NCBI GenBank assembly: GCA_035627695.1
Contig: DASPLE010000058.1
Span: forward strand, 43,423 to 107,422
From: Planctomycetota bacterium
Lineage (GTDB): Bacteria > Planctomycetota > UBA11346
DNA length: 64,000 bases
Direction: 5' to 3'
Part shown: in pieces, positions 3,120-37,110 of the stretch
Numbering within the stretch: position 1 is the first letter of the stretch
Layout of the letters: the number at the start of each line of letters is the position of its first letter
Program-made: the position numbers and the translations under genes
The notes under the pieces: model-generated
Seen by the model: the letters and a program-made list of their open reading frames with translations, nothing else
Told to the model about the DNA's origin: nothing
Databases searched by the model: none

Positions 3120-3128
3120 CCATCCCGT

Positions 3129-12556: not shown

Positions 12557-12573
12557 GGGACCGGCCGCTCGCG

Positions 12574-12676
12574 GCTCGAAGCTCGAAGTTCGAAGCGCGA
12601 GGCTCGAAGCTCGAAGCTCGAAGCTCGAAGCTCGAAGCTCGAAGCTCGAAGCTCGAAGCTCGAAGCTCGAGCTTCG
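12574..12676. repeat. heptanucleotide tandem array (GCTCGAA)n ~14 units, between convergent gene ends
   Basis: direct reading: gctcgaagctcgaagctcgaag...; begins 18 nt after OMP stop and ends 7 nt before LysR-gene stop. Confidence 0.9.
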
Positions 12677-12682
12677 CGCCAC

Positions 12683-13627
12683 CTACCGCGCCGGCTGCAC
12701 CCGATCGCGCGGCACCGACGTCCGCATCACCGACGCCAGCTCGCGGTACGCATCGCCGCGCGGATCGTTGCGCCGCCAGTAGACCGCGATCGTCCGCCGC
12801 GTGCGCCGGCCGCTGATCGGTCTGAGCGCGATGCGCTCGTCGTCGCCCGTCGCCAGCGCGGGCAGCAGGGTCACGCCGCGGCCGAGCGCGACCAGGCTCT
12901 TGAGCGTCTCCAGGCTGGTCGCGCCGTAGTCGGCGCCGGTGCGACGCGCGTCGCCGCGCAGCCGGCAGAGCTCCAGCGCCTGCTCGCGCAGGCAGTGGCC
13001 CTCGTCGAGCAGCAGCAGGCGCTCGCCGGCGAGCTCGGCCGGCGTCACCTCGTCGGCGCGCGCTAGCGCATGGCGCTTCGGCAGGGCCGCCAGGAACGGT
13101 TCGTCGTAGAGGGCGACGACCTCGTGCCCGGCGTCGAGACCGGGCATCACCGCCATCAGCGCGAGGTCGATGCGGCCGCGGTCGAGGCGTTCGACCATTT
13201 CGGCGGTGGTGCCCTCGACGATCGGCAGGTCGAGGTCCGGCCAGCGCGCCTCGAGCGCGTGCGCCAGGAACGGCAGCGCGTACGGGCCGACCGTCGGGAT
13301 CACGCCGAGGCGCACGGGGCCGAAGAACGGCGGCGTCGCCGTGCCGGCGGCATGCTCGAGAGCCTCGAGCGCGGCGAGCGCGGCGCGCGCCTGCGCGACC
13401 ACGCGCTCGCCGGCGGGCGTGGTCCTGACCCCCGATCCCGACCGTTCGAAGGCCTGCATGGCCATGCGCCGCTCCCACTGCTGGATCTGCGCGCTGAGGG
13501 TCGGCTGCGAGACGCCGCAGGCGGCGGCGGCGCGCCCGAAGTGGTGATGGTCGGCGAGCGCCACCAGGTAGCGCAGGACCGGGAGCGTGGTCGCCTTGGG
13601 ATCGAAGATCCCGTCTATCGCCGCCAT
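12683..13627 (-). CDS. oxyR: LysR-family regulator, OxyR-like (peroxide sensor)
   Basis: LysR HTH (FGRAAAACGVSQPTLSAQIQQWE); OxyR redox-Cys pair context LLDEGHCLREQALELC (Cys-x8-Cys like C199/C208); divergent from zupT-dps. Confidence 0.7.
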   Translation of the reverse strand: MAAIDGIFDPKATTLPVLRYLVALADHHHFGRAAAACGVSQPTLSAQIQQWERRMAMQAFERSGSGVRTTPAGERVVAQARAALAALEALEHAAGTATPPFFGPVRLGVIPTVGPYALPFLAHALEARWPDLDLPIVEGTTAEMVERLDRGRIDLALMAVMPGLDAGHEVVALYDEPFLAALPKRHALARADEVTPAELAGERLLLLDEGHCLREQALELCRLRGDARRTGADYGATSLETLKSLVALGRGVTLLPALATGDDERIALRPISGRRTRRTIAVYWRRNDPRGDAYRELASVMRTSVPRDRVQPAR

Positions 13628-13815
13628 AGTCGCCGCTCCGATGCCGGGACGCCCCGACGCGCATGATGACCGTTGTCAGGGGAGTCTGCGATGCCCGCCG
13701 TTCACGCCATCACCGCTTCCTCGGCCTCGGCGCGTCCCGGCCATGACGAGAGCCTGGCCGTCCGGCGTGGTGAGCCGGCGCCCGCGGTGGACCATGGTCG
13801 GCTCGGGGAGCGACC

Positions 13816-14553
13816 GTGCTGACCGCCGCCACCATCGACGCCGTGGTCATCACCGGCGCCGCCTCGCTCGCCGGCGGGTTCGGCGCGTTCATCCGCGGGC
13901 TCTCGCCGCGTGCCACCGCCGCCGCGTTCGGCGTCGCCGGCGGCATGATGCTGGCCGCATCGCTGCTCGCCCTGCTGCCGCAGGCCCTGGCGCAGGTGCC
14001 GACGACCGGCGGCGGCCTGGGCGTGGTCGGAGGATTCCTCGCCGGAGTCGCGGCCATGTGGCTGCTCGATCTCGTGGTGCCCCACCAGCACCCGGACGAG
14101 TCGGCCGCCGACCACGGCGTCTCGGCGCTACGGCCGGCGCTGCTGATCACCCTCGCGATCGGCCTGCACAACCTCCCCGAAGGCGCCGCCGTCGGCCTGG
14201 CCGCGGCGGGCGGCGAAGGCGGCCGGGTCACCTGGGCCATCGCCGTCCAGAACGTCGTCGAGGGCCTGCTCGTCGCGGTGCCGCTGCGCCTCGCCGGCCT
14301 GCCGCGCTGGGCGGCGTTCGGGCTGGCCGCCGTCGCCGCCGCGGCCGAGATCGGCGCGGCGCTGCTCGCCGGGGCGATCGCCGGCGATGGCGTGGTCGTG
14401 CTCGCACTCGGCATGGCCTTCGCCGCCGGCGCGATGTGCTACGTCGTCTTCGAGGAGCTGATGCCCGCCGCCAACCGCACCGGCCACGGCAACGCCGCGT
14501 CGCTCGGCGCCTCCGCCGGCATCGCCGTCACCCTCGCGCTCGGCGTCGTCTGA
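13816..14553 (+). CDS. zupT: ZIP-family zinc/iron transporter (ZupT-like)
   Basis: multi-TM, HNLPEG motif, HxxxE-type metal site; GTG start. Confidence 0.75.
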   Translation: MLTAATIDAVVITGAASLAGGFGAFIRGLSPRATAAAFGVAGGMMLAASLLALLPQALAQVPTTGGGLGVVGGFLAGVAAMWLLDLVVPHQHPDESAADHGVSALRPALLITLAIGLHNLPEGAAVGLAAAGGEGGRVTWAIAVQNVVEGLLVAVPLRLAGLPRWAAFGLAAVAAAAEIGAALLAGAIAGDGVVVLALGMAFAAGAMCYVVFEELMPAANRTGHGNAASLGASAGIAVTLALGVV

Positions 14554-14601
14554 CGCCGCCCAGGCGACCGCCTCGACCATCCCACCATCACGGAGAACGA
14601 C

Positions 14602-15063
14602 ATGGCCAAGACCTCATCCGCCCCGAAGGGCAACGATCTGAGCAAGGCGCTGAGCCGCATCCTCGCCGACACCTACGCGCTGGCGGTGAAGACCCACGGC
14701 GCGCACTGGAACGTCACCGGCCCGGCCTTCTTCAGCCTGCACGAGGCGTTCAGCGTGCAGTACCTGGCGCTGTTCGAGGCCGCCGACGACATCGCCGAGC
14801 GCCTGCGCGCGCTGGGCGCGTCGGCGCCGAGCGGCATCGCCGAGATCGCCGGCGCGTCGACGCTGCCGGCGTCCCCGTCCTCGAGCGACGGCGTGGCCCT
14901 GGCCGGCGCGCTCGCTGCCGACCACCGGTCCGTCGCCAAGGCCTGCCGCGAGGGCGTCGCCGTGGCCCAAGCCGCCGGCGACGAACCCTCGGCGGACCTC
15001 CTCATCGGCCGCGCCGAGGCGCACGAGAAGACCGCCTGGATGCTCGGCGCCGCGGCGACCTGA
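14602..15063 (+). CDS. dps: Dps (DNA-binding ferritin-like protein)
   Basis: 153 aa ferritin-like; HEAF...E ferroxidase-type residues; good SD GGAGA 6 nt upstream. Confidence 0.85.
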   Translation: MAKTSSAPKGNDLSKALSRILADTYALAVKTHGAHWNVTGPAFFSLHEAFSVQYLALFEAADDIAERLRALGASAPSGIAEIAGASTLPASPSSSDGVALAGALAADHRSVAKACREGVAVAQAAGDEPSADLLIGRAEAHEKTAWMLGAAAT

Positions 15064-15105
15064 GCGTCCGGTTGCGCGCCCGCGTTCGCCAGGCGAGCAT
15101 CGTGC

Positions 15106-16554
15106 ATGCTCGCCGCCTTCCGTTCCGGTGATGCGCGCGCAACGCGCTGGCTGGGCGCCGAAGCGACGACCGATGCGTCGGCGTTCGCGCGCGGCTTCGC
15201 CTGGCGCGGGGACCGCGCGGCGCTGGCGGCGATCCTCGACCAGGCGGTGGCGGACGGCGGACGGCAGGCGCGCGTGGCGGTCGCGCGCCTGCGCGGCGAT
15301 GGCGTCGCGATCGTCGCCGGCCAGCAGCCCGCGGTCGGCGGAGGCCCCCTCTACACGCTGGTCAAGGCGGCCCAGGCGGTGGCGACCGCGCGCGCGCTCG
15401 CTGCCGCCGGCGTCGGCGCATCGGCGGTGTTCTGGTGCGCGTCCGAGGACCACGACCTCGGCGAGGCCGATCACGCCGACCTCATCCGCCGCGACGGCCG
15501 GATCGACCGCGTGCGCGTCGATCTCGGCGACGGCCGCGCCAGCCTGCGCTTCCGCGCCGCCGCGCCGGCGTTCGCGGCCGTCGTCGCGCGCCTGCACGCC
15601 GACCACGGCGACGGGCTCGGCTCGGCCTGGCTGCGCGCGCACGCGCCGCGCGCCGACGAGCGCCTCGGCGGCTGGCTGTGCCGCCTGCTGATGGAGGCCT
15701 TCGCCGCGCACGGCCTGATCGCGGTCGAGGCGCATCGCCTGCGTCCGCTGTGGGCGACGCGCCTCGCGCGCGCCATCGACGCGTGGCCGGCGCGCGAGCT
15801 CGCCGAGCTGCGCCGCGAGATCACCGCAGCCGGCCATGCCGACGCGCTCGGCGCGCTCGACGATCCGCCGCTGTTCCGCGATGCGCCGGACGGCCGCGAG
15901 CCGCTGGATCCCGGCGCGGCGCGCGCCCTGCTCGTCAGCGATCCGCTCGCGCTGAGTCCCGGCGCCGCGCTGCGCCCGGCCCTGCAGCAGGTGGCGCTCC
16001 CGGCGGCGTGCGCGGTGCTCGGTCCGGGCGAGCTCGCCTACCACGCCGTGCTCGGCCCGGTCTACGCCGCGCTCGACGTGCCGCGGCCGTTGCCGCTGCC
16101 GCGCGTCTCGGTCGCGCTGGTGCCAGGATGGCTCGAGCGCGCCGCCGAAGCGTGGGGCGTCGCGGTCGACGCGCTGACCGCGGACGCCGCGCCGCCGTCC
16201 TACCCGGCCCCGCTGGCGCACGAACTCGAACGCATCGAGGCCGCGCTCGCCGATCTGGCGCGCGCCGGCGGTTCGCTGCCCGGCGACCTGCCCCGCCGCG
16301 CCGCCGCCGGCCACGCCCGCCTGACCCGCGAACTCGAACGCCTGCGCGCCTCGCTCGCCCGCGGCGAACGCCGCCGCGCGGGGCGCCCGCCGTTCGGCAC
16401 GCTGACCGGCTGGCTGTTCCCGCGCGGCGAGCCGCAGGACCGCGTCATGAGCCTGTGCCAGGCGTTGTGGCTCTATGGTCCGGGACTGGCCGACACGCTG
16501 GTCGAGGCGGTGGCGATCACGGCGGCGGGTGACCGGCGACTGATCAGGGTGTGA
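15106..16554 (+). CDS. BshC/YllA-family protein (bacillithiol biosynthesis cysteine-adding enzyme homolog)
   Basis: highly characteristic N-terminal motif VAIVAGQQPAVGGGPLYTLVKA (cf. BshC VVTGQQ.GLF.GPLYT), 482 aa. Confidence 0.55.
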   Translation: MLAAFRSGDARATRWLGAEATTDASAFARGFAWRGDRAALAAILDQAVADGGRQARVAVARLRGDGVAIVAGQQPAVGGGPLYTLVKAAQAVATARALAAAGVGASAVFWCASEDHDLGEADHADLIRRDGRIDRVRVDLGDGRASLRFRAAAPAFAAVVARLHADHGDGLGSAWLRAHAPRADERLGGWLCRLLMEAFAAHGLIAVEAHRLRPLWATRLARAIDAWPARELAELRREITAAGHADALGALDDPPLFRDAPDGREPLDPGAARALLVSDPLALSPGAALRPALQQVALPAACAVLGPGELAYHAVLGPVYAALDVPRPLPLPRVSVALVPGWLERAAEAWGVAVDALTADAAPPSYPAPLAHELERIEAALADLARAGGSLPGDLPRRAAAGHARLTRELERLRASLARGERRRAGRPPFGTLTGWLFPRGEPQDRVMSLCQALWLYGPGLADTLVEAVAITAAGDRRLIRV

Positions 16555-16688
16555 GGGAGGCCGTGCGGCGCCGAGCACGCCGCTCGAATCGCGGTTCTGG
16601 ATCCGTCAGCCGGATATTCGCCTACCGGTCGGTCCGATGCGATGTCAGGCGGGGGTCCGCGCGGCTGGACGCATCGGACGAGTCCGAT

Positions 16689-17084
16689 CTACGTCGGTTC
16701 GATGGGCGCCGCGTACGGATTGGGATCACTGCCGGGCTGAAGTCGATCCCCCGCGACTCCGCTCGCATCGCCGGATCCGCTGTCGCGATCAGCATATTTT
16801 CCGCCGACGAGTTCCTTGATGAAGATGAGCCATACGACGGAAGCGAAAACGCCGAGCACTTCCCAGAGGAAGTAATGGATCGCATACTCGTTGTCCGTCA
16901 TGACCGATATGCCGAGCGAGTGGAGCATCTGCTTGGACCAGACGATCAGGAAGAGGAATTCGGCGATGCCGATCGCGAGAACCGTTTTCGTCCGCCGGCA
17001 TCTGCGAAAGACGACGACCACCGTCAGCAGTCCCACCACCGCGGCGATCGGACTGAGAAGATACTGGGCGACGAGATCGATCAT
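16689..17084 (-). CDS. small membrane protein, hypothetical; sits in a ~550-bp low-GC islet
   Basis: 131 aa with 2-3 hydrophobic helices; codon usage AT-richer than all neighbours. Confidence 0.4.
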   Translation of the reverse strand: MIDLVAQYLLSPIAAVVGLLTVVVVFRRCRRTKTVLAIGIAEFLFLIVWSKQMLHSLGISVMTDNEYAIHYFLWEVLGVFASVVWLIFIKELVGGKYADRDSGSGDASGVAGDRLQPGSDPNPYAAPIEPT

Positions 17085-17112
17085 GTGTGATGGCTGACGA
17101 CCGGCATTGCCC

Positions 17113-17499
17113 TCAGCCGAAGATCCGCTCCAGCTTCGACGCCTCCGGCGACAGCAGCACGTACGCCGCGCCGCCGAATGCGACCAGCGCCGCGATCGAC
17201 TTGTAGACCACCCACCCCCAGCCATGGCTGATGCGGTCGGCGTCGCCGGCGGCCTGGCGCAGGCGGATCCGCTGCACGGTGTCGACGGCGATCGCGATCA
17301 GGCGCAGCCCCGAGAGGATCAGGAACACGCCGAGCACCGGCAGCAGCGGGAACGCACCGGTCGCGTAGTGCACGATGACCCCGACCAGGATGTCGAGCAG
17401 CATCAGCCCGGCGCACACCAGGACGACGGTGTTGATCCAGCGCTTCGCCGGCGCCGGCGGGATCTCCGACTGCGGCGGCGCGAACGGATCGGTGGTCAC
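17113..17499 (-). CDS. small membrane protein, hypothetical, translationally coupled (GTGA overlap) to transketolase stop
   Basis: ~128 aa, 3 predicted TM helices; GTG start overlapping tkt TGA. Confidence 0.4.
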   Translation of the reverse strand: MTTDPFAPPQSEIPPAPAKRWINTVVLVCAGLMLLDILVGVIVHYATGAFPLLPVLGVFLILSGLRLIAIAVDTVQRIRLRQAAGDADRISHGWGWVVYKSIAALVAFGGAAYVLLSPEASKLERIFG

Positions 17500-19571: not shown

Positions 19572-19584
19572 GGCAAACCTCGTT

Positions 19585-19619
19585 GGGGCCCGTTCCGTGG
19601 GCGGCGGAGCCCCGTTTTT
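19585..19619 (+). terminator. intrinsic-terminator-like hairpin (8-bp stem with 1 bulge, GGGGCCCG...CGGaGCCCC) followed by TTTTT, in divergent tkt/19847 intergenic region
   Basis: read directly; T5 tract is unusual in this GC-rich DNA; no plus-strand gene upstream, so function unclear (see finding). Confidence 0.35.
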
Positions 19620-19846
19620 CCAGGGCGCCGCCGAGCATGGAGACGGCTCACCGGCCAGCAAGACGCCCGGCGCGCGGTGGACGGATCCGGCGGCGGTCGA
19701 CGACGTCGCTGGGCCTACGCAGCACCGATCGCTGCTGCGACCGGAGCGCGGATGGCGGACCGGGCCGCGGCCGCGCCGTTCACACGCGCGCACGGCGGAT
19801 GAAAAGGTACGCCTGGCCGCGACCGCCGGCGCGGGACGATGCCGCC

Positions 19847-20851: not shown

Positions 20852-20927
20852 GCACGTCCCAGGCCATCGCGACCAGCCGTCGCGCGTCGCCGCTTCGGCG
20901 CGGACGGCGCCGCCGTAGCCTCCGCGC

Positions 20928-21527
20928 ATGGCCGACACCGCCCCCCTGCCCGCCCCCGCGTACGATCCCGATGCCGGCGCCGTCGATGGGAAGCCGCGCG
21001 CGGCGGTGTTCGCCGCCGGCTGCTTCTGGTGCGTCGAAGGCGTGTTCGAGCGCCTCGACGGCGTCAGCGACGTGGTCTCCGGCTACGCCGGCGGCGCGCC
21101 CGAGACCGCCAACTACGAGGACGTCTGCGGCGGCGACACCGGCCACGCCGAGGTCGTGCGCGTGACCTACGACCCGACGCGCATCACCTTCGGCGAGCTC
21201 CTGCGCGTGTTCTTCAGCACCCACGATCCGACCACGCCCGACCGCCAGGGCGCCGACGAGGGCGAGCAGTACCGCTCGGCGGTGTTCGTCGCCGACGACG
21301 CCCAGCGCCGCGCGGTCGACGGCTACATCGCGCAGCTCACGAAGGCCGGCTCGTTCCGCTCGCCGATCGTCACCCGCGTCGAGACCCTCACCGCGTTCCA
21401 TCCGGCCGAGGAGCACCACCAGGACTTCGTCCGGCGCAATCCCGGCCACCCGTACGTTCGCGCCGCGGCGGGGCCCAAGATCGCCAAGCTGTGCGCGCTG
21501 TTCCCGGATCGGGCGCGCGCGCGCTGA
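20928..21527 (+). CDS. msrA: peptide methionine sulfoxide reductase MsrA
   Basis: GCFWC active site, GHAEVVRVTYDP motif. Confidence 0.9.
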   Translation: MADTAPLPAPAYDPDAGAVDGKPRAAVFAAGCFWCVEGVFERLDGVSDVVSGYAGGAPETANYEDVCGGDTGHAEVVRVTYDPTRITFGELLRVFFSTHDPTTPDRQGADEGEQYRSAVFVADDAQRRAVDGYIAQLTKAGSFRSPIVTRVETLTAFHPAEEHHQDFVRRNPGHPYVRAAAGPKIAKLCALFPDRARAR

Positions 21528-21543
21528 CGCCGCACGTCGCCGG

Positions 21544-21636
21544 GCTTCGCGCTTCGAGCTTCGAGCTTCGAGGTCCGAGCTTCGAGCTTCGAGCTTCGAG
21601 CTTCGAGCTTCGAGCTTCGAGCTTCGAGCCTTCGCG
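21544..21636. repeat. heptanucleotide tandem array (GAGCTTC)n ~12 units between convergent gene ends
   Basis: gcttcgagcttcgagcttcgag...; starts 17 nt after msrA stop, ends ~12 nt before stop of 21648 gene. Confidence 0.9.
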
Positions 21637-21647
21637 CCGCCGACGCG

Positions 21648-22655
21648 TCACCACGCCGCCGGCGCGGTCTCCAGGCGCTGCACCCAACGCACCGAGCCGA
21701 CCGGGTTGTTGATGTGGATCTGGCAACGCGACGACCGCCCGTGCGATGCCTTCGAGCTGTTGCGCGGGTGCATGACGTAGTTGTCGATCACCTTCGCCGG
21801 CGTGTTGCCGTTGCCGCCCCAGCTCCAGCCGTAGCGGTCCTTCGGCGTGTCCCCGTACGGCGCGCCGAACTCGTTGTCCGTCAGGTGGAAATCCGGCGCC
21901 GCGACCGCAGCGCTCCACTCGATGCGGTACCACAGGCGGCGCTCGTCGGCGAGGATCGCGGCGAAGGACGCCTGGTCGCCGAACTGCGCCTCGGCGTTCT
22001 CGGCCACGACCTCGTCCCAGTCGGCGAAGCCGAGCGTGCCGCCCGCGCCGCAGGTGATGACGAAGACCGCCGCGCTGTCGCGGTAGCAGCGGAACCACGA
22101 CATCCCGGTCGATGTCGGGCGCGGCATCGGATCGCCCTGCCGCCAGGAGTCCCAGGTCTCGGTCGGCGTCCGCTTCACCGGCCGCGGGTCCGGACGGGTC
22201 ATCAGCGGCAGGCCGAAGTCGGCGCTCTCCGGACCGGCGATCGGATTGTAGGCGGCGGTCAGCTCGACCGCGAACGGTGGCCGCTGGCGCACCTGCATCG
22301 GGCAGCGCGCGGCGCGGCCGCCGATGGCGGGGAAGCGGCTCGCATCGCTCCACACCGTGTTGTTCGCCTGGTCGCGCGGCCCGGGCTGTCCGTTGCGCAC
22401 GTCGATCCAGCCGAAGCCCTCGCGATGGGCGCCGTTCGCGCCCAGCGTCGTGTCCCAGCCCAGCCGGCTGGACTCGAGCACGTAGTTGCAGCCGGCCACC
22501 AGCATCACCCGCGCCTGGGTCTCGCGCACCACCTCGGCGGTCGCCTCGGCATCGCTGCGCATGCGCAGCAGGAACGCGGCGCCGAGCGACGCCATCAGCG
22601 CGCAGATGCCGGCGATCGCGATCAGCACCGTGCCGCGGCGGCGATCAGGGCGCAT
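21648..22655 (-). CDS. membrane-anchored hypothetical protein (last gene of prepilin-like operon)
   Basis: N-terminal basic stretch + hydrophobic helix (RRRGTVLIAIAGICALMASL), no prepilin E5. Confidence 0.5.
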   Translation of the reverse strand: MRPDRRRGTVLIAIAGICALMASLGAAFLLRMRSDAEATAEVVRETQARVMLVAGCNYVLESSRLGWDTTLGANGAHREGFGWIDVRNGQPGPRDQANNTVWSDASRFPAIGGRAARCPMQVRQRPPFAVELTAAYNPIAGPESADFGLPLMTRPDPRPVKRTPTETWDSWRQGDPMPRPTSTGMSWFRCYRDSAAVFVITCGAGGTLGFADWDEVVAENAEAQFGDQASFAAILADERRLWYRIEWSAAVAAPDFHLTDNEFGAPYGDTPKDRYGWSWGGNGNTPAKVIDNYVMHPRNSSKASHGRSSRCQIHINNPVGSVRWVQRLETAPAAW

Positions 22656-25697: not shown

Positions 25698-25998
25698 GCT
25701 CACCGGAGTGGACACGAGGATGAGCGTGGTCCGGACAGGATTCGCAGAAAAACCGCAAGAAAGTGATGTCGACGGCGCGAATGTGCCGGCGCGCTCGGTC
25801 AGCAGGAATGACAGTCGCGCCCCAGGAAAATTCCCGTCCACAACTCGTGGCGACGACGGGAGTACGGCAGGCGCATGACGCGCCAGGTGGCGATCGGAGC
25901 GGTAAATGTCATATGGAGCCTGGACGCCGTGATATGCCCGATGGCCAGCTTGCGGGGCTGGACGTGGCTCTCAGCGCCGCGGCGCCGAGCATGAGGCC

Positions 25999-26832
25999 AT
26001 GCCCGCCTGGCTGCCGCGCGTGGTGTCGATGTCGTGCATGCCCACCACGCGGGGCAGCGCCTGCGATTGGCACGCGCACGGCGACGCCGACGAGCTCTGC
26101 CTGGTCAGCGACAGCCCGAGCCGTCTCGGCCATGCGGGCTCGCCGTTCAGCGCGCGGCCGGACACGCTGCTGCTGTTCCGCCGCGGCGAGCGCCACGGCT
26201 ACTGGAACAGCGGCGCCGACGCGCCGCACCTGTGGGTCGTGCACTACCGCGCCGACGAGTCGCTCTACGCGGAATGCCCGCTGCTCGCCGCCAACGATCC
26301 GAGCAAACGCGTGTGGCGCCTGTCGCCCGAGCGCGCCGACGTCTTCAAGGGCCTGTTCCTCAAGATCATGGCCGAGCACCGCCGCGCCGGCCCCAGCGCC
26401 GCCGCCGCGGAATCGGCGTGGCTGCGCCTGCTGCAGGTCGCCGTGCATCGCTGGGCCGCCGGCGAGCGCGACGACAGCCCGCCGGCGCTGGCCGATCGCG
26501 AGCTGCTCGCGCTGTGGCAGACCGTCAACGACCACGCGACCGCGCCGCGCCTGCCGGGCGGGCTCGCCGCGACGGTGCCGAACTACGATTCGCTCCGCCA
26601 CCGCTTCGTGCGCGCGTTCGGCGCCTCGCCGCGCGCGCTGGCGACCGATCTGCGCATCGAGCGCGCGATGAGCCTGCTCCTGGAAAGCGACCTGCCGGTG
26701 CGCGACATCGCCGAGCGCGTCGGCTACGCGCGCCAGCACGAGTTCGCCCGCGCCTTCCGGAGGCGCACCGGCGTCACGCCGACGGCGTGGCGATCGCGGC
26801 CGGTGCCGCGGTCCGATCGCGCGCGATCGTAA
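25999..26832 (+). CDS. AraC-family transcriptional regulator (cupin + HTH)
   Basis: C-terminal AraC HTH (VRDIAERVGYARQHEFARAFRRRTGVTPTAWR); divergent to prepilin operon. Confidence 0.8.
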   Translation: MPAWLPRVVSMSCMPTTRGSACDWHAHGDADELCLVSDSPSRLGHAGSPFSARPDTLLLFRRGERHGYWNSGADAPHLWVVHYRADESLYAECPLLAANDPSKRVWRLSPERADVFKGLFLKIMAEHRRAGPSAAAAESAWLRLLQVAVHRWAAGERDDSPPALADRELLALWQTVNDHATAPRLPGGLAATVPNYDSLRHRFVRAFGASPRALATDLRIERAMSLLLESDLPVRDIAERVGYARQHEFARAFRRRTGVTPTAWRSRPVPRSDRARS

Positions 26833-26863
26833 GCGGTTCACGCGGCATCGCGCGACGAGCGTC

Positions 26864-26978
26864 GGGCTGCGAGCTGCGAGCTGCGGGCTTCGGGCTTCGA
26901 GCTTCGAGCTTCGAGCTTCGAGCTTCGAGCTTCGAGCTTCGGGCTGCGAGCTTCGAGCTTCGAGCTTCGAGCTCGAGC
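26864..26978. repeat. heptanucleotide tandem array (GAGCTTC/GGGCTTC/GAGCTGC)n ~16 units between convergent gene ends
   Basis: gctgcgagctgcgagctgcgggcttcgggcttcgagcttcgag...; fills the gap from AraC stop to stop of 26979 gene. Confidence 0.9.
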
Positions 26979-27797
26979 TCAGGCCGTGCGCTGCGGGACC
27001 GCGTCGTCGCCGAGATCGGCGATGAACGCGATGAAGCCGCCGCTCAGCGCCCACCACGCGAGCGCGAAGACCATCAGCGGACCGCTCACCACCGTCAGCG
27101 CGAACAGTCCCGACGCGAATCCCAGGATCGCGACCGCCGACGCCGCGGCGCCCATGGCCAGCGTGGCGACGAGGACGTTCCACTCGCGCAGCGCGATGAC
27201 GGCGCCGACCGCTCCGCCGACGATCGCGACCATCGAGGCGAACACGACCCCCGCCGGAGACAGGAGGCTCAGCGCGATGGCGGGAAACGCCGCGCCGAAA
27301 GCCGCGGTGAGCGCGATCCGCGCGCAGCGTCGCCGTCGCGCGCACGCGCGGTAGTTGTCGTTGATGGCGCTGAGCCGTCGCGCATGCGCCAGCGCCGCGA
27401 GCAGGTCGTCGGGATCGGTGTCATCCGCCGGCCGGTCGTTGTGCCCGGGCAGCGGCGCTGCGTCCTGGAACGCGTGCATCGGCGCGAGCAGCCAGGCGCG
27501 GGCGAGAGCCAGGGCGCCGACGGCGACCACGGCGACGAGGATGGCCGGCGCATGCATCGGCGCCTTCGCCGACCACGCGACGACACCCACCGCCGCGACG
27601 GCGACAGCGACGGCACCGAGCGCGCCCACGCGCGCCGACACGGCCACCGCCGCGGCGCCGATCAGCGGCCCGCTCCAATGCGCGAGCAGCGCCGGGCCCG
27701 CGCACGCGCCGCCGACCACGACCAGCGCCGTGCTGACGCGCGCGTGCCAGCGCAGGCCACGGGCGTGCTGGCGGTCGACGACCTGCTCCTGGGCCAT
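26979..27797 (-). CDS. polytopic membrane protein, hypothetical
   Basis: 5-6 Ala/Val-rich TM helices; start chosen at internal ATG (MAQEQVV) to avoid overlap. Confidence 0.4.
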   Translation of the reverse strand: MAQEQVVDRQHARGLRWHARVSTALVVVGGACAGPALLAHWSGPLIGAAAVAVSARVGALGAVAVAVAAVGVVAWSAKAPMHAPAILVAVVAVGALALARAWLLAPMHAFQDAAPLPGHNDRPADDTDPDDLLAALAHARRLSAINDNYRACARRRRCARIALTAAFGAAFPAIALSLLSPAGVVFASMVAIVGGAVGAVIALREWNVLVATLAMGAAASAVAILGFASGLFALTVVSGPLMVFALAWWALSGGFIAFIADLGDDAVPQRTA

Positions 27798-27924
27798 GCG
27801 ATGGCGATGCCTGGACTCACGCGCACAGGCGAAGGTCGCGGCGGGATCGCCGGCGGCGGCTGGCGGCGTCGGTTCCATTGCCGCGGTGACGCCGCCGACC
27901 GCTGGACCTGTCGCGAGCGTCGGC

Positions 27925-28173
27925 TCACGCCGTCGCGGGAGCCTTGGCCTCGTTGTTGCGGGCGCTGCGGACATTGATCAGCGCCAGGAACACCTGCAGC
28001 CCGACCAGCGCCCAGGCGCCATCGTGCCAGCCCCACGCCATCCACAGCAGATTGCTGACCAGCATGCTCCAGAAGCCGACCTGACGCTTCCAGCGGATGC
28101 GCGAGCCGATGAACCAGGCGCCGACGATGGTCACGACCATCGCCGGCCACTGCAGGTGATCGATCCAGTCCAT
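27925..28173 (-). CDS. small membrane protein (82 aa), possibly lipid-A-biosynthesis N-terminal (LAB_N)-like
   Basis: two TM helices, Trp-rich (WMAWGW); weak resemblance only. Confidence 0.35.
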   Translation of the reverse strand: MDWIDHLQWPAMVVTIVGAWFIGSRIRWKRQVGFWSMLVSNLLWMAWGWHDGAWALVGLQVFLALINVRSARNNEAKAPATA

Positions 28174-28256
28174 CCGCGGCCATGGTCCACGTCGCCCACG
28201 CGCCGACCACCGCCGATGGTCAGGTCTTGTTCACCGCGCCGTCGCGCCGTCCGCGA

Positions 28257-28814
28257 CTACCGCGGCGCCCGCGCCCGCGCCTTCGCCCGCGCCTTCGCCC
28301 GCGCCTTCGCCCGCGCGCGCTCGCGCAGGAGGCGGCGGTATTCGCGCCCGACCCGGTTCTGCGCGCGCAGGCGCAGCATGGTGCCGCGGCAGCGCGGCGC
28401 GCCGCAGCGGCAGCGGTAGCGCGCCGTCCACACCCGTCGGTAGGGACCATCGATGATCAGGTTGTAGTCGAAGCCCAGCTCATCGCCGGGCGCGATCGGG
28501 CGCAGCGCGACCAGGAACACGCGCTGCCCGCGGATCACCGACTCGCAGTTCGGCGCGCACGAGTGGTTGATGAAGCGCGCGGCGTTGCCGTTGCGCGAGC
28601 CATCGATGACCACGTCCGGCGCGACCTCGAACAGCATGGTGTGGCCGTCGCGGCTGGTCGCCTGGCGCTCGGCCTCGTCGGCCGTCAGGCGTTGGCCGAC
28701 GTACTCGCCGATGCGCCCGCCGGTGCGCACGGCGCGCGTGGCGAAGGCGCCGCGGCCGTGGATCGCCGAGGTGCGGACGACGAACGGCTCGGTCTTTTTC
28801 GCGCGCGGCGCCAT
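28257..28814 (-). CDS. SET-domain protein (lysine methyltransferase fold) with C-terminal basic (KARA)n tail
   Basis: GRGAFATRA...GEYVG, RFINHSCAPNC, GDELGFDY, post-SET CRCGAPRCRG; tail RERARAKARAKARAKARARAPR. Confidence 0.75.
   Translation of the reverse strand: MAPRAKKTEPFVVRTSAIHGRGAFATRAVRTGGRIGEYVGQRLTADEAERQATSRDGHTMLFEVAPDVVIDGSRNGNAARFINHSCAPNCESVIRGQRVFLVALRPIAPGDELGFDYNLIIDGPYRRVWTARYRCRCGAPRCRGTMLRLRAQNRVGREYRRLLRERARAKARAKARAKARARAPR
28270..28322. repeat. 12-nt tandem repeat (GCGCCTTCGCCC)x~4 inside 3' end of SET gene, encoding the KARA tail
   Basis: gcgccttcgcccgcgccttcgcccgcgccttcgccc read directly. Confidence 0.85.
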
Positions 28815-28917
28815 CGGGCTCGGCACGCTGCGCCTCGCGCCGGTCATGACAAGGCCGCGCACGGTTCGGATGCACAGCCGATGCGCCGGACGCGGACCGC
28901 GCCACGATCCACGCATG

Positions 28918-29400: not shown

Positions 29401-29498
29401 ACATGCCGCGCTGCCGCCGCCCCGCGGGCGGACGATGTGCGCGCCGCCGGTAGCGCTGCCCCCTGCCATCGCCGCTCGCCGCGTTCATCATCCGCGGC

Positions 29499-30521: not shown

Positions 30522-30631
30522 AAGGAAGCGTTCGCCGCGATCGGACAATCCGTGCAGCCGACCCTGGATGGGGCACGCTCCCGTCGCGCACGCGGCAACG
30601 AACGTCCTGGCGTTCCAACCGTTTAGTTTCC

Positions 30632-33163
30632 ATGTCGTTCCCTGGCCTCGCGCGCCTCGCCCTGCTGCTCGCCGTCGCGCTCGCCGCCGGCGCCGCCGAC
30701 GCCGCCGCGCTGGCCGAACTGCGCGGCGAGTGCCTGCGCTTCGTCGCCGCCCGCCTGAAGCGCGGTCCGGTCGCCGACGTGCCGTGGTCCAAGGGCATGG
30801 TGCTGACGATCGAAGGGCTCGATCTCGCCACCGGGATGCTCGACGCGACCATGGGCACCTCCGGCCTGCAGGTGCCGGTCTCGACCGTCGACACGACGCA
30901 GCTCGCGCACCTCATGCGCCAGGCCGCGGGCCCGCGCGCCAAGGCCGATCTCGACGCGTGCGCGATGTCCGCCGCGCTGTTCCGCGTCGTCGGCGACCAC
31001 GAGAACGCGCGCCTGGTGCTCGAGCTCGCGAAGACCCACATGCCCGGCGTCGACGAGCGGTACGCGCGCTGGGCCGACAAGCTGCAGCTCGCGACGGTCG
31101 CGACCTCCGCGGCCGACAAGCCGGTCAAGGAGCCCGCCGCGAAGGACGCGTCCGCCGCGAAGAAGGCCGAGGCCAACCAGCCGGCGCGCGGCACGACCAG
31201 CAAGCGCAAGCCGATCGCCAAGGAGCATCCGCGCGTGTTCGGCTCGCGCTCGCGCCTGCAGCAGCTGGCCACGGAGCGCCCGGCGGCGACCAAGGCGATG
31301 CTCGAGGTCGCGCGTCAGGACGATCTCCCGGATTCGGTGGTGATCCCGAGCCGCGCCTTCGCCTACGCGCTGACCGGCGACAAGGCGCTCGGCCGCGGCG
31401 CGATCGACCGCTGCAAGCCGTACATCGACGGCGAGATCAAGGTCGGCCACGTCACCTTCGGCCACGACCTCGCCTGGTGCGCGATCGCCTACGACTGCTG
31501 CCACGACCTGTGGACGAAGGAGGAGATCGCCGCCTTCCACAGCTACATGAACCGCACGGTCGACGCGAACGTCGGCTCGGAGGTGCACGTCTTCCACAAC
31601 GGCTGGTTCGGCTACAAGAACTGGGGCATCGGCCTGGCGTGCTACGCGACCATGCACGAGAACCCGAAGGCGGGCGAGTACCTCAAGACGCTGGAGCACG
31701 ACTACGTGACGCGCGCCGCGCCGGCGCTCGAGCTCGCGGGCGATGGCGGGTCGTGGATCGAGGGCCACTACCTCAACTACTGGATCACGCATTGGCTGTG
31801 CTTCATGGAGGCCGCCCGGCTGTGCGAGGGCGTCGACTACTACGAGAAGGCGCCGCGCTTCTTCGCCAACCGCGCGCTGTGCGGCATGTTCGACATCTAT
31901 CCGGGCGAGCCGCTGCACCACCTCAACCGCGCGGTGCCGCACGGCGACGGCGGCTACGGCGACTACGGCGGCTTCAGCGAGATGATCCTCGCGGCGCGGC
32001 GCATCCTGTGCGGCTACTACCGCAATGATCCGGCCCACCAGGCGATCGCGTCGTACAGCGACCGCATCGAGACCAACTGCATCCCGACCTACGCGTGGTG
32101 GACGTTCCTGTTCGACGACCGCACCGGCGCGCGCGGCGATTACCACGCGCTGCCGCTGTCGCACGTCGCGCCCGGCGCCGGCGCGGTGTTCGCGCGCAGC
32201 TCCTGGGACGGCGACGCGACCTGGTTCCAGTTCCGCTGCGGCGACCGCCTGGCCACGCACCAGCACCTCGACGTCGGCCACTTCATGATCTATCGGCGCG
32301 ACGCGCTGGTCGGCGACGCCGGCGCCTACGACGACTTCGCCGGCGACCACGTGACCAACTTCTACATGCGCTCGATCGCGCATAACACGGTGCTGATCCA
32401 CGACCCCGCCGAGCGGTGGCCGGCAGGCATCCGCGCCTTCCCCGGCTCGACCGGCAACGACGGCGGACAGGCGTATCCCTGGCTCGGCACGCCCGCCGGG
32501 CACAACGCCGCCATGACGGATGTGCCGTCGTACCAGGCGAACCGCGCGCTGATGGAGACCGGCGACCTGCTCGCGTACGCCGATCACCGCGCCTTCGTCT
32601 ACACCGCCGGCGACGCGACCCGCGCGTACAATCCGGAGAAGTGCGCGACGTTCACGCGTCAGATCGTCTTCCTCCGCCCGTCGACCTTCGTCATCTTCGA
32701 CCGCGTCCGTTCGCGCCGGCCGGACCAGAAGAAGTACTGGATCGCCAACCTGCACGCGACGCCGACGCCGAGCGGCAAGCAGCTGGTGGCGACCAACGGC
32801 GATGGCCGGCTCTTCATCCAGACGGTGCTGCCGGCCGAGCCGGAGATCGCGCTGAGGAGCGGCGGCGACATCTACACCTACTTCGGCGAATCGCATCCGC
32901 CGAGCAACCCGCCCGGCGGCCCGGTCGCCCAGTGCCGCGTCGAAGTGTCGTCGCCCAAGGCGGACGAGGCCGAGACGTTCCTGCACGTGCTGACCGCGGT
33001 CGATGCGACATTGGAGTCGGTCCCGACGTACGACGCCACCGTCAAGGGCGGCGACGTCGCGATCACCGTCGGGCCGGCGGCGATCGTCTTCAGCATCAAG
33101 GACGTCGGCGGCAGCGTGACGATCAATGGGCAGAAGCAGGCGCTGACGTCGAACCTGCGCTGA
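30632..33163 (+). CDS. secreted heparinase II/III-like polysaccharide lyase family protein
   Basis: signal peptide; C-terminal heparinase II/III signature HQHLDVGHFMIYRRDALVGDAGAYDDFAGDH...HNTVLIHD. Confidence 0.7.
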   Translation: MSFPGLARLALLLAVALAAGAADAAALAELRGECLRFVAARLKRGPVADVPWSKGMVLTIEGLDLATGMLDATMGTSGLQVPVSTVDTTQLAHLMRQAAGPRAKADLDACAMSAALFRVVGDHENARLVLELAKTHMPGVDERYARWADKLQLATVATSAADKPVKEPAAKDASAAKKAEANQPARGTTSKRKPIAKEHPRVFGSRSRLQQLATERPAATKAMLEVARQDDLPDSVVIPSRAFAYALTGDKALGRGAIDRCKPYIDGEIKVGHVTFGHDLAWCAIAYDCCHDLWTKEEIAAFHSYMNRTVDANVGSEVHVFHNGWFGYKNWGIGLACYATMHENPKAGEYLKTLEHDYVTRAAPALELAGDGGSWIEGHYLNYWITHWLCFMEAARLCEGVDYYEKAPRFFANRALCGMFDIYPGEPLHHLNRAVPHGDGGYGDYGGFSEMILAARRILCGYYRNDPAHQAIASYSDRIETNCIPTYAWWTFLFDDRTGARGDYHALPLSHVAPGAGAVFARSSWDGDATWFQFRCGDRLATHQHLDVGHFMIYRRDALVGDAGAYDDFAGDHVTNFYMRSIAHNTVLIHDPAERWPAGIRAFPGSTGNDGGQAYPWLGTPAGHNAAMTDVPSYQANRALMETGDLLAYADHRAFVYTAGDATRAYNPEKCATFTRQIVFLRPSTFVIFDRVRSRRPDQKKYWIANLHATPTPSGKQLVATNGDGRLFIQTVLPAEPEIALRSGGDIYTYFGESHPPSNPPGGPVAQCRVEVSSPKADEAETFLHVLTAVDATLESVPTYDATVKGGDVAITVGPAAIVFSIKDVGGSVTINGQKQALTSNLR

Positions 33164-33165
33164 GC

Positions 33166-33237
33166 GCGAAGCTCGAGGCTCGAGGCTCGAGGCTCGAGCC
33201 TCGAGGCGCGAGGCGCGAAGCGCGAAGCGCGAAGCGC
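33166..33237. repeat. heptanucleotide tandem array (GCTCGAG / GCGCGAA)n ~10 units immediately after heparinase-like gene stop
   Basis: gcgaagctcgaggctcgaggctcgaggctcgagcctcgaggcgcgaggcgcgaagcgcgaagcgcgaagcg. Confidence 0.9.
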
Positions 33238-33238
33238 T

Positions 33239-33454
33239 GCGGGCGCTAGGCGATAGGCGGCAGGACAACCCGCGAAGCCCGCTACGCCCCCTGTCGAGCC
33301 TTGTCTCGACCGATCGCTTGTGGTCGCACGCCGATCGCGACAGTTGCGCCTTCCCGTCGCCTCGGCGACGACTCGATCAATCCGGGCTCCGCGCGTCGTC
33401 ACGACCGTCTGGTGCTCACCGGCTCACCCGCCGGACCCAACGGGACGACCCATG
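33239..33454 (+). promoter_or_regulatory. long (~215 nt) 5' leader of DEAD-box helicase with hairpin GTCGAGccttgtCTCGAC; possible cold-shock-type regulatory UTR
   Basis: inverted repeats read from sequence; DEAD-box/cold-shock genes commonly carry long structured leaders. Confidence 0.3.
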
Positions 33455-34900
<1,446 letters not shown>

Positions 34901-34930
34901 ACGGTCGCTGACGATCCGCGACGCAGAGCG

Positions 34931-34959
34931 GCCCACCGGCGACGGTGGGCCGTTTTTTT
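34931..34959 (+). terminator. rho-independent terminator (stem GCCCACCG/CGGTGGGC, GCGA tetraloop, T7 tract)
   Basis: canonical hairpin + TTTTTTT directly after helicase stop; also abuts the convergent gene end. Confidence 0.75.
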
Positions 34960-34977
34960 CCGCAGCCCTGCCGCGCG

Positions 34978-36930
34978 TCAGCCGCTGCCCGACGGCGGCT
35001 GCGGGACGATCGCCCAGCGCTGGTTGTCGCTGCCGTGCTCCGACCACTGGATGACATCCGCTCCGTCCACGGTCGAGGCGCCGGCGACATCGAGCACCTT
35101 GCCGCTGTGCGCGGCGACCAGGCGGTAGCACCCGCCGCCGACGGGCTCGATGCGCCAGCGCTGGTTGGCGCCGCCATGCGCCGGCCACTGGATCGCGTCG
35201 CCGCCATCGGCGGTCGCGGCCCCGCCGACGTCGAGCGCCTGGCCGCTGCAGCGCGCGGTGAGCGTGTAGGTGCCATCGCTCAGGGCGTCGATGCGCCACT
35301 GCTGCGCCGACGTGCCGTTGTCGGTCCACTGGACGACGTCCGCGCCGTTGGCGCGCGACGCGCCCGCGACGTCGAGGCACTTGCCGCTGTGCTTGGCGAC
35401 CAGCTTGCACCACGCGCCGGTGACGATCGCGTCGCCGCCGGGCGGCACGCCGCCCGCGACCGTGATCGTCCACGCCGGCGAGCGCGCGGTGCCGCCGGCC
35501 GCGTCCCAGGCGAGCGCGCTGACGCGATGCTCGCCGTCGCGCGCCGTCGCGCTGTCCCAGACGACCTCGAACGGCGCGGTCCGCGACTCGCCGACGACGA
35601 CGCCATCGACCAGGAAGCGCACGCCGACGACGGCGACGTCATCCGCGGCGAACGCCCCGAGGCGCACCGCGCCGCGCGCCACCGCGCCGTCGTACGGCGC
35701 GCGCAGCGCGACCGTCGGCGCGGCGATGTCCGCGACCGCCGCGCGCACGAACGTGCCGTTCAGGTCCTGGCCGTAGCCCTGCCACATCGCCGGCGTGCTC
35801 CACGGCTCGCTCCAATGGAACGGCGCCGCCAGCGAGCCGATGTGGTAGGTGTTCCAGTCGAAGCGGTTCGATTTCTCCGCGCCGAAGTAGATCGCGCCGC
35901 CTGGCACATCGTGCGCCACGCCGTTGTGGCCGCGGCGCATGCGCACGACGTTGTGGTGCACCCACAGGTCGTGCTGGTCGTGGGTGCCGTGCAGCGCCGG
36001 CTCGCCGCGGATCTGCTGCTTGGCGCAGATCGCGCTCGCGTTGTCGATCACCGTGTTGCCGTGGACCTCGACGTCCGGGCTCTCCGACACCAGGATGCCG
36101 GCGCCCCACAGCCACGTCGCGTCGCCGCCGTTGCGCGCGACGAAGTTGTTCCGGATCGTCGCGCGGTAGCTGATCTCGTGGAAGATCCCCATGCCGGCGT
36201 TGTCGACGATGACGTTGTTCTCGTAGAGCGTGTCGATGTTGTTGATGTCGGTCCAGATGCCCGGGCCGTGGTTGTGGTGGCTGTGGTTGCCGCGGACGAC
36301 CAGGCCACGCGTCACGACCAGCTTGCCGGCGCCGCCGTCCTCGAGCCGCTTCCAGTTGTTGCCCGCGATCTCGTTGCCTTCGATCAGCATGCCGTCGCCG
36401 GTGCCGATCAGCCCGTTCCAGCCGTTGTCGAGCAGCCGGCAACGGGTGATGCGCGCGCCGTCGCCGGTGCGGATCGCCGCCATCGCGTTGTCGCGGACGA
36501 CGCAGGCGTCGATGACCCAGCCGATCCCGCCCTGGCCGGTCCCGTGTCCGCCGATGCGGATCGCGCCGAAGTGCAGCGGCGGATTGTAGCGCTGGATGAC
36601 CAGGTTCTCGATGCGCACGCCGGCCGGCCGCGCCGCGACATCGCCCATGAAGGCGTATTCGACCGTGCCGCCGCCATCCATGATCGCGCCGCCATCGCCG
36701 ATGAACCGCTGACCCGCTCGCGGCAGCACCGATTGCCGCAGGTGGACGCCGGCGCGCAGGCGGAACGTCGTCGCGCCGGGATTGGCGTCGACCGCCGCCT
36801 GGATGCTCTGGCCGGGCACGATGACGACCTCGACGGCGTCGAGTCCTGGCACCGCCGCCACGGCGAGCGCGGCGAGGACGATCGCCGCGGTCAGGCCTGC
36901 GTGGATGCGGGACGGTGGGCTGGGGATCAT
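34978..36930 (-). CDS. secreted right-handed parallel beta-helix protein (pectate-lyase-fold) + Ig-like region + ricin-B (CBM13-type) lectin domain
   Basis: signal peptide; repeated NxxxxDN / GN..HHN beta-helix turns; C-terminal three QxW repeats (QQWRI, QRWRI, QRWAI) of beta-trefoil lectin. Confidence 0.75.
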   Translation of the reverse strand: MIPSPPSRIHAGLTAAIVLAALAVAAVPGLDAVEVVIVPGQSIQAAVDANPGATTFRLRAGVHLRQSVLPRAGQRFIGDGGAIMDGGGTVEYAFMGDVAARPAGVRIENLVIQRYNPPLHFGAIRIGGHGTGQGGIGWVIDACVVRDNAMAAIRTGDGARITRCRLLDNGWNGLIGTGDGMLIEGNEIAGNNWKRLEDGGAGKLVVTRGLVVRGNHSHHNHGPGIWTDINNIDTLYENNVIVDNAGMGIFHEISYRATIRNNFVARNGGDATWLWGAGILVSESPDVEVHGNTVIDNASAICAKQQIRGEPALHGTHDQHDLWVHHNVVRMRRGHNGVAHDVPGGAIYFGAEKSNRFDWNTYHIGSLAAPFHWSEPWSTPAMWQGYGQDLNGTFVRAAVADIAAPTVALRAPYDGAVARGAVRLGAFAADDVAVVGVRFLVDGVVVGESRTAPFEVVWDSATARDGEHRVSALAWDAAGGTARSPAWTITVAGGVPPGGDAIVTGAWCKLVAKHSGKCLDVAGASRANGADVVQWTDNGTSAQQWRIDALSDGTYTLTARCSGQALDVGGAATADGGDAIQWPAHGGANQRWRIEPVGGGCYRLVAAHSGKVLDVAGASTVDGADVIQWSEHGSDNQRWAIVPQPPSGSG

Positions 36931-37043
36931 GCGGTGCTCCTGGGGGTTCGCCCGAGGTGGCCGCCGTGTCGTTGAGCGGCGTCAGGGCACCGGCGCCTGC
37001 GGCGGCGGCCGGTGACACACCGGACACGGGCGCGAGCTCGGTA

Positions 37044-37093
37044 CTTCGAGCTTCGGGCTTCGGGCTTCGGGCTTCGAGCTTCGAGCGTCGGGC
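37044..37093. repeat. heptanucleotide tandem array (GAGCTTC/GGGCTTC)n ~7 units between stop of ECF-beta-helix gene and start of beta-helix-lectin gene
   Basis: cttcgagcttcgggcttcgggcttcgggcttcgagcttcgagcg. Confidence 0.9.
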
Positions 37094-37110
37094 TCCACGC
37101 CCGCGCCGCG

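Follow-up and report, generated by a model that had tools for sequence, protein, structure and literature searches.

A fast-turnover GAGCTTC heptanucleotide repeat family in the 3' trailers of a planctomycete genome

Introduction

Bacterial families of tandem heptanucleotide repeats, first noted in 1990 and counted from 2007 onward, lack an agreed function or origin. The class of long simple sequence repeats (LSSRs), whose units measure 5-11 nt, comprises repeats that are longer than expected by chance and occur in scattered lineages, polymerase slippage having been proposed as their source, according to the summaries of Mrazek, Guo & Shah (2007) in PMC4679880 and PMC4692102; the former summary also gives heptanucleotides as the commonest LSSR class in many bacterial genomes (Mrazek et al. 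2007). We analysed a family of this kind in 64,000 nt of a Planctomycetota bacterium (assembly GCA_035627695.1, contig DASPLE010000058.1, positions 43,423 to 107,422; hereafter the window), where five tandem arrays of GAGCTTC lie just past the stop codons of genes. Like other LSSRs, these arrays are head-to-tail and spacer-free, exceed chance, have the same unit at unlinked loci and vary in length; LSSRs are a general statistical class, for which we found no account of this unit, of a start right at the stop codon or of an orientation rule. The arrays are probably an LSSR-class microsatellite family that is driven by slippage and turns over fast, housed in 3' trailers and not serving as a dedicated terminator in this organism. 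We found no paper describing any rotation of GAGCTTC as a repeat; the kind is thus known, but this family is apparently undescribed.

Among described families, Xanthomonas has about 185 arrays of GGGAATC and Nostoc about 90 of GGGGA(C/T)T (Rehm et al. 2015, PMC4692102). Of these, 89-93% are intergenic, at a mean of 28 nt from the upstream open reading frame (ORF) and 160 nt from the next; overlap with the stop codon is frequent and placement between divergent ORFs rare, and the arrays are transcribed, vary in length by species and are in some cases paired in inverted orientation, their function being left unresolved (PMC4692102). The arrays of the window are likewise intergenic, near a stop codon and depleted in divergent gaps. 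However, the Xanthomonas and Nostoc units are G-rich and form G-quadruplexes, whereas GAGCTTC is quasi-palindromic (overlapping TCGA and AGCT) and free of G runs: GGG is present solely in the variant GGGCTTC, and the G runs (at least 3 G) in every unit that a G-quadruplex calls for are absent. In Xanthomonas, two species have about 90% of their arrays at shared sites, flanked by the same ORFs, whereas here none of four comparable sites is shared, and convergent gaps hold 11-16% of the Xanthomonas and Nostoc sites as against three of the five in the window.

Further families are TAACTGA in the Beggiatoaceae (PMC4679880) and the short tandemly repeated repetitive (STRR) heptamers of cyanobacteria (cited in PMC4692102). 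They too consist of one heptamer in many dispersed intergenic tandem sets, recurring in distant phyla. TAACTGA, however, has 2-6 copies, mostly just upstream of start codons, contains a stop codon and has no predicted structure, whereas the arrays analysed here have 7-18 copies past stop codons and a unit that is stop-free in all six frames.

Repetitive extragenic palindromes (REP), elements of enterobacteria and pseudomonads, are imperfect palindromes of 20-40 nt mobilised by REP-associated tyrosine (RAYT) transposases. Among the roles that PMC3733652 mentions as proposed for REP and bacterial interspersed mosaic elements (BIME) are mRNA stability, termination and supercoiling. REP elements are transcribed and stand between convergent genes or inside operons. 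The arrays resemble them in their extragenic location at 3' ends, in their ability to form hairpins and in lying between convergent genes; they differ in their 7-nt head-to-tail unit, with palindromes solely at orientation flips, and neither a RAYT gene nor a GTAG/CGTC tag was seen here, RAYT genes not having been searched for genome-wide. The repeats of contingency loci (Haemophilus, Neisseria), whose copy number also alters by slippage, act as on-off switches of genes from a position in the promoter or the 5' coding region, whereas a unit change past a stop codon shifts neither reading frame nor promoter spacing. CRISPR, in which repeats of 23-50 nt alternate with unique spacers, is excluded by the contiguous 7-nt units, by an Rfam scan of the whole window (0 matches, CRISPR direct-repeat families included) and by the lack of cas domains in the flanking genes. 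The first-pass annotation of the window, which described a dispersed microsatellite family that is neither CRISPR nor REP, was right on this point.

Arrays of the window

Tandem Repeats Finder (TRF) run on the window, followed by direct reading of the sequences, gave five arrays of period 7 with 7.3-17.9 copies and 0-1% indels; together with the probe counts below, this bears out the places and the two orientations first reported for them. Because the window is 73% GC, genes were called from third-position GC, and the calls were compared with those on record for the same contig. All the arrays lie past stop codons, none in a promoter or a 5' coding sequence. The nearest stop codon is 0-24 nt away, so that the earlier figure of 20 nt was nearly right, and the gene calls agree that arrays 1-3 fill convergent gaps.

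Array 1 (12567-12678, minus orientation, about 16 units; TRF 12574-12670, 13.9 copies, 93% matches) has a perfect core and a degenerate left edge. A flip in unit orientation coincides with a perfect palindrome of 16 nt, CGAAGCTCGAGCTTCG, at 12661-12676. It fills the gap 12557-12682 between a TraF-like gene (stop 12554-12556) and a LysR/OxyR-like gene (stop 12683-12685). The gap 21528-21647, between msrA (stop 21525-21527) and a gene of 335 aa (stop 21648-21650), is filled by array 2 (21542-21637, plus orientation, about 13 units of GAGCTTC with the variants GGGCTTC, GCGCTTC and GAGGTCC; TRF 21544-21634, 12.9 copies, 92% matches). Array 3 (26857-26978, plus orientation, about 17.5 units; TRF 26856-26979, 17.9 copies, 88% matches) is made up of a GAGCTGC/GGGCTGC block, a GGGCTTC block, a GAGCTTC core and a terminal GAGCTCGAGC. 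It fills the gap 26833-26978 past an AraC-family gene (stop 26830-26832) and runs directly into the stop codon (tca, 26979-26981) of a minus-strand gene of 272 aa, thus abutting the TGA of a gene whose mRNA reads the array as GCUCGAA/GAAGCUC.

The two remaining arrays lie in co-directional gaps, and in both the mRNA reads GCUCGAA/GAAGCUC. Array 4 (33164-33239, minus orientation, about 11 variant units; TRF 33164-33237, 10.6 copies, 91% matches at period 7, with a score of merely 78) begins at the first base past the TGA (33161-33163) of a heparinase-like gene, with a DEAD-box helicase gene downstream. By our reading its plus strand runs GCGCGAA, GCTCGAG x4, CCTCGAG, GCGCGAG, GCGCGAA x3, and an orientation flip produces a 13-bp perfect hairpin. 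Array 5 (37041-37096, plus orientation, about 8 units: GAGCTTC, GGGCTTC x3, GAGCTTC, GAGCGTC and others; TRF 37044-37094, 7.3 copies, 88% matches) lies 14-24 nt past the stop codon (37111-37113) of a minus-strand gene coding for an extracytoplasmic function (ECF)-sigma/beta-helix protein and precedes the next minus-strand gene (start about 36930); its mRNA is GCUCGAA/GCCCGAA. The genes flanking the arrays have ordinary, mutually unrelated functions. Within the window alone, arrays are found in about 3 of 8 convergent gaps and 2 of 24 other gaps, a difference that is suggestive only.

In all five arrays the unit is GAGCTTC (GAAGCTC on the opposite strand) with one- or two-base variants; the plus strand of arrays 1 and 4 reads GCTCGAA, that of arrays 2, 3 and 5 GAGCTTC. 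The word 'perfect' in the heading of the first description is too strong: each array has a perfect core, but blocks of variant units (GGGCTTC, GCGCTTC, GAGCTGC, GAGCCTC/GCTCGAG) stand beside or within these cores throughout and dominate arrays 4 and 5. Unit positions 1, 3, 4 and 7 are constant in most variants (GNGCNNC). A three-unit probe (up to two mismatches) matched the window 36 times, against 0 in 100 dinucleotide-preserving shuffles, and a two-unit probe 51 times, against 0.75 expected; a scan of the window for arrays of period 5-11 gave no further sizeable one. As a background we used 408 kb of unrelated metagenome loci from a JGI metagenome search with MsrA, whose best match was 58% identical and which offered no orthologous gaps; they held two 4-copy heptamer arrays, both of other units. 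The statement that the arrays have no common flanking sequence also stands: a comparison of the five flanks gave nothing shared, the 9-mer CGGCATCGC present in two of them being a frequent word (22 times in the window).

The five arrays lie within 25 kb, and the remaining 39 kb contain only a short, degenerate remnant or seed (1660-1695, plus orientation; GGGCTTC GAGCCTC TGGCCTT TGGCCTT), matched by the two-unit probe at 1660-1673 and situated about 44 nt past a stop codon at 1614-1616. In arrays 1-3 degenerate units lie to the left and perfect units to the right in window coordinates, regardless of unit orientation. As GC skew is negative throughout the window, this gradient may reflect a polarity of growth relative to replication (n = 3, not significant).

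Gain and loss between relatives

We compared the window with two close relatives, relative A (GCA_013821365.1, GCA_020064125.1 and SRR11719877; about 90% nucleotide identity) and relative B (GCA_043737525.1; 83-90%), in which an array is present at 0 of 4 comparable sites. In relative A the gap between msrA and the 335-aa gene is TGA-T-CTA, a single nucleotide with no array, in three assemblies, and a more distant relative (MsrA 85% identical) is array-free in the 29 nt available past its msrA stop codon. Array 2, which comes with about 25 nt of unique flank, has thus most parsimoniously been gained. In relative B the place of array 4 past the heparinase-like gene is taken by an unrelated spacer of about 55 nt that contains scraps resembling an array, and past the AraC gene there is a gap of 15 nt, with different neighbours, in place of array 3. 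The genes of 272 and 82 aa to the right of array 3 (26979-28256, no Pfam match) are replaced there by AraC-type and PhyH genes (L197, 5036-6702), and array 3 is therefore at a synteny breakpoint. Relative B is also without both beta-helix genes around array 5 (34978-39318; a RICIN/Big_7 protein and the ECF-sigma fusion), its helicase gene being directly followed by a PALP gene; this difference amounts to an indel of 4.4 kb that is strain-specific. The reverse case is the convergent gap between BshC and a 128-aa gene, which holds (TTCGAGC)x10 in relative A; the corresponding site of the window (16555-17112) has no array and a 131-aa ORF on the minus strand (16689-17084).

Whole arrays thus turn over rapidly between close relatives, and three of the six arrays of the clade lie at synteny breakpoints. 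The family is a trait of the clade; its individual arrays do not persist. Two other loci (L183 and L184, transketolase 83% identical) are array-free over 7 kb, but they are not syntenic and hence uninformative.

On a shorter time scale, exact protein look-ups found the region in contig k141_642305 of ENA assembly ERZ27257312, in a second ENA assembly, in Logan contigs of SRR7003766 and in a 119-kb NCBI third-party annotation (TPA) contig from a metagenome-assembled genome (MAG) of a planctomycete. The transketolase of the region has named relatives exclusively in Planctomycetota MAGs. Contig k141_642305 spans the window from 11515 onward and about 20 kb past its right end, and over 20.8 kb it is 99.8% identical to the window, with six single-nucleotide polymorphisms and one indel. 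This sole indel is of exactly 35 nt, equal to five units, and falls within array 3, in its GAGCTGC block, the extra units being in the ENA contig after 26865, in line with the suggestion that the arrays are hotspots of slippage. Arrays 1, 2, 4 and 5 have the same copy number in all assemblies that span them, and the Logan contigs break inside arrays. Lengths differ between orthologous arrays elsewhere as well (67 and 88 nt in Chromohalobacter; 135, 75 and 49 nt past ppk). The arrays thus change by whole units, and variant units are amplified in local blocks.

GAGCTTC arrays in other genomes

A scan of 185,579 species genomes for four perfect GAGCTTC units returned at least 101 loci. The placement rules below derive from 100 arrays among the matches listed, to which all counts in this section are limited. 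The majority are from Halomonadaceae; genomes with several arrays also include a Thermomicrobiales MAG, a Psychromonas sp. (low GC, 41%), Natronospira and a Marinilabilia MAG, and single matches occur in Planctomycetota, Verrucomicrobiota, Acidobacteriota, Dehalococcoidia, Cyanobacteria, Patescibacteria and others. The unit is found in at least 10 phyla, at genome GC contents of 33% to 74%, and as a family in Halomonadaceae, the Thermomicrobiales MAG, Psychromonas and Natronospira, which contradicts the initial view of a lineage-specific repeat. Any heptamer may turn up somewhere in 185,579 genomes; it is the multi-copy family in distant lineages that needs explanation.

The 70 arrays whose gap could be classified comprise 32 in convergent, 33 in co-directional and 5 in divergent gaps. 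With orthologues uncollapsed, the convergent share (32/70) exceeds a background of 18-22% from the same loci (p about 1e-6) and the divergent share (5/70) falls below one of 19% (p about 0.009), so that the enrichment at convergent gene ends, which had been proposed as a check, is found in other genomes. Collapsing the orthologues leaves 38 gene ends, and in 24 of them the array begins 0-3 nt past the stop codon. Wherever an array and a canonical terminator are both present (14 cases), the terminator is downstream, and the array is thus part of the 3' untranslated region (UTR) and no substitute for a terminator. The phrase that the arrays lie exactly where terminators would be expected was accordingly misleading, as in genomes having a canonical terminator the array is between it and the stop codon.

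Orientation differs between lineages. In Halomonadaceae the mRNA reads GAAGCUC (A-type) in 20 orthologue-collapsed cases and is B-type in 4, whereas in other taxa GAGCUUC prevails by 14 to 2 (Fisher test, p = 1e-5 versus Halomonadaceae). In Halomonadaceae the last one or two bases of the stop codon double as unit bases (T|AAGCTCG); in the opposite orientation TGA+GCTTCGA (= T|GAGCTTC) is common. The genes abutted include hslU, ppk, a PII gene, lnt and secF. The array-abutted HslU and PII have their usual C-termini, so the arrays reached the native stop codon and did not create it; the creation of a stop codon inside an array was rejected on these grounds. The oriented flanks of 83 arrays had no common sequence outside Halomonadaceae.

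In that family, ten convergent gaps (L005, L008, L009, L029, L036, L038, L042, L061, L066 and L083) are composed in one way. From one stop codon to the other, a short (GGAAGCT)n comes first, then a GC hairpin whose A/T tracts make it a bidirectional terminator, then a stretch of about 20 nt and lastly (GAGCTTC)n. The 3' UTR of each gene consequently begins with a GAAGCUN array. Past hslU (C-terminus ...DEDLSRYIL) in Chromohalobacter and Billgrantia (L055, L075, L079), an array with mRNA GAAGCUC follows a 30-nt spacer of other heptamers, while in Natronospira (L096) the hslU array stands directly past the TGA in the opposite orientation. A Planctomycetota MAG from Lake Mendota has four heptamer arrays within 500 nt (L047, 1-500), namely GTGACCA x18, a GGACCAGA-like array, GCTCGAA x4 and GCTGGTC x8, and some planctomycetes thus hold several heptamer families.

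RNA folding and terminators

Ten copies of the unit fold to -35.8 kcal/mol as GAGCUUC and to -30.7 kcal/mol as GAAGCUC, in helices with one bulge per unit. Among 2340 heptamers these folds rank 319 and 432, and among the 640 of the same GC content 87 and 117; the unit is thus hairpin-prone yet unexceptional, and an exceptional propensity to form hairpins was rejected as the cause of its recurrence. The real array gaps have minimum free energies of -49 to -78 kcal/mol. Compared with dinucleotide shuffles, array 4 folds better (z = -2.2 to -2.5) and arrays 1, 2, 3 and 5 do not (z = -0.1 to -1.6), so that folding of the arrays with their flanks, the check first suggested, supports structure in one of the five. 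No T-run follows any of the five arrays, and a terminator scan was empty at all of them.

The sole canonical terminator at a gene end in the window is a hairpin at 34931-34958 (within 34901-34977; GGCCCACCG-gcga-CGGTGGGCC, then T7), located past the DEAD-box helicase gene in a convergent gap. It is kept in relative B (L196), with a shorter T-run. In another convergent gap, of 36 nt (3093-3128), a GC hairpin of 10 bp, GGGCGGCCGG ttcc CCGGCCGCCC, lacks a T-run and may be a U-less terminator.

It could be argued that the arrays are themselves terminators or 3'-end stabilisers, a hairpin or the double-stranded RNA of convergent transcripts halting RNA polymerase or 3' exonucleases. The convergent gaps of arrays 1-3 hold no other hairpin, a hairpin-plus-U-tract terminator is otherwise seen at one gene end in the whole window, the folding energies are large, array 4 has its 13-bp hairpin, and in Xanthomonas transcripts start or end at heptamer repeats more often than at controls (PMC4692102). 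Against this, no U-tract is present, four of the five arrays fold no better than their shuffles, and elsewhere arrays lie upstream of canonical terminators and do not replace them. Moreover, the terminator is conserved between relatives and the arrays are not, and the convergent gap past msrA works at 1 nt in a close relative; these points argue that the arrays are not needed for termination here, and we regard this explanation as unlikely.

Origin and possible function of the arrays

The arrays are confined to promoter-free 3' trailers, and are most likely a tolerated by-product; they are probably neither a required terminator nor a regulatory signal in this organism. Changes by whole units would come about by slipped-strand mispairing. 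Slippage alone is insufficient for array 2, as the gap is 1 nt in relatives, and a seed is needed. Such a seed may be copied from an existing array, for instance by microhomology-mediated template switching, which would explain the one unit at all loci, and it would then expand by slippage. Neutral deletions may trim the spacer down to the stop codon, which is held by selection, and this would explain arrays that start at the base past the stop and often share 1-2 nt with it. As trailers lack a promoter and a ribosome-binding site, the arrays pile up in convergent gaps and avoid divergent ones. They would be transcribed within the 3' UTR, where they could form long imperfect hairpins.

Several observations weigh against this microsatellite interpretation. 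The difference of five units in array 3 could be a short-read assembly error, and the import of a seed is something that we infer and do not observe. A purely neutral model does not explain the one unit at every locus, or why at least five distant lineages have it as a family. Which way an array faces its abutting gene depends strongly on lineage, and in the planctomycete clade the mRNA of the closer gene is GAAGCUC in all determinable cases. Among the matches listed, 8 of 10 Halomonadaceae groups have the phase stop+GCTCGAA (p = 6e-6), and several genera have arrays past the same housekeeping genes, namely hslU, ppk and PII. The lineage-specific orientation, the Halomonadaceae phase and the reuse of the unit across phyla keep explanations at the RNA or protein level alive.

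One such explanation is a heptad-periodic binding platform, on which one protein per 7 nt of the 3' UTR would affect ribosome release, mRNA decay or termination. Arrays begin 0-3 nt past the stop codon in most of the gene ends listed, with a fixed phase and a lineage-specific orientation; they are upstream of terminators and hence transcribed; the unit is shared by distant lineages, low-GC Psychromonas included; and a precedent mentioned in PMC4679880 is CspB, which binds heptamer repeats with one protein per unit. An RNA-binding protein of the cold-shock/OB-fold type, a DNA-binding protein or Rho, for which each unit offers one UC dinucleotide, might conceivably play this part, each at long odds, but the analysis pointed to no particular protein. 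Copy number varies widely, turnover is fast, variants are tolerated at three of the seven unit positions, arrays are absent from orthologous sites within the clade, and the opposite orientation that dominates in other lineages argues against a single conserved RNA reader. Phase and abutment can also be explained by microhomology deletions halted by selection on the stop codon, and we consider such a platform improbable.

One might also speculate that (GAAGCUC)n/(GAGCUUC)n is an orientation-specific 3'-UTR element, copy-and-pasted at the first base past the stop codon and read by a heptad-periodic nucleic-acid-binding factor. This doubtful scheme would explain the recurrence of unit, position and phase in Halomonadaceae, Thermomicrobiales, Planctomycetota and others at any GC.

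That the arrays are a mobile element or its footprint, inserted past stop codons by a transposase or a reverse transcriptase in the manner of RAYT and REP, is very unlikely. Array 2 and its unique flank do occupy a gap that is 1 nt in relatives, half of the arrays of the clade are at synteny breakpoints, and orientation is biased relative to the gene. However, there are no shared flanks, terminal inverted repeats or target-site duplications, and no transposase gene stands beside the arrays in the Pfam matches and on-record calls examined, most of the window being unscanned. Local amplification of blocks is typical of slippage. Four perfect units were found in 0 of 2.9 million viral contigs, by which phage-borne spread was rejected. 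Finally, an assembly artefact can practically be dismissed, although the ends of short-read contigs often fall within arrays: up to three further, independent assemblies (two ENA, one Logan) agree with the window in arrays and copy number, and GAGCTTC arrays occur in isolate genomes, including a complete Halomonas chromosome.

What is new here is a family whose unit is common to several phyla, a positional rule (a start at the base past the stop codon, upstream of the terminator, in a lineage-specific orientation) and the very rapid appearance and disappearance of arrays among close relatives, one array standing where sister lineages have a gap of 1 nt. If the neutral interpretation is true, the arrays are hypervariable strain markers and explain breaks in assemblies. 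If the orientation and phase rules are functional, cultivable Halomonas, with arrays past hslU, ppk and glnB/glnK-type PII genes, would be a tractable test system.

Minor features of the window

The window has no tRNA or tmRNA genes. At 60182-60281, where gene calls are incomplete, some 33 triplets form a long (CGG)n tract that also has a super-period of 24 nt. A perfect 12-nt tandem repeat, CGCCCGCGCCTT x3.8, stands at 28272-28316, at the 3' end of a 189-aa gene whose orthologue in relative B has a SET-domain match.

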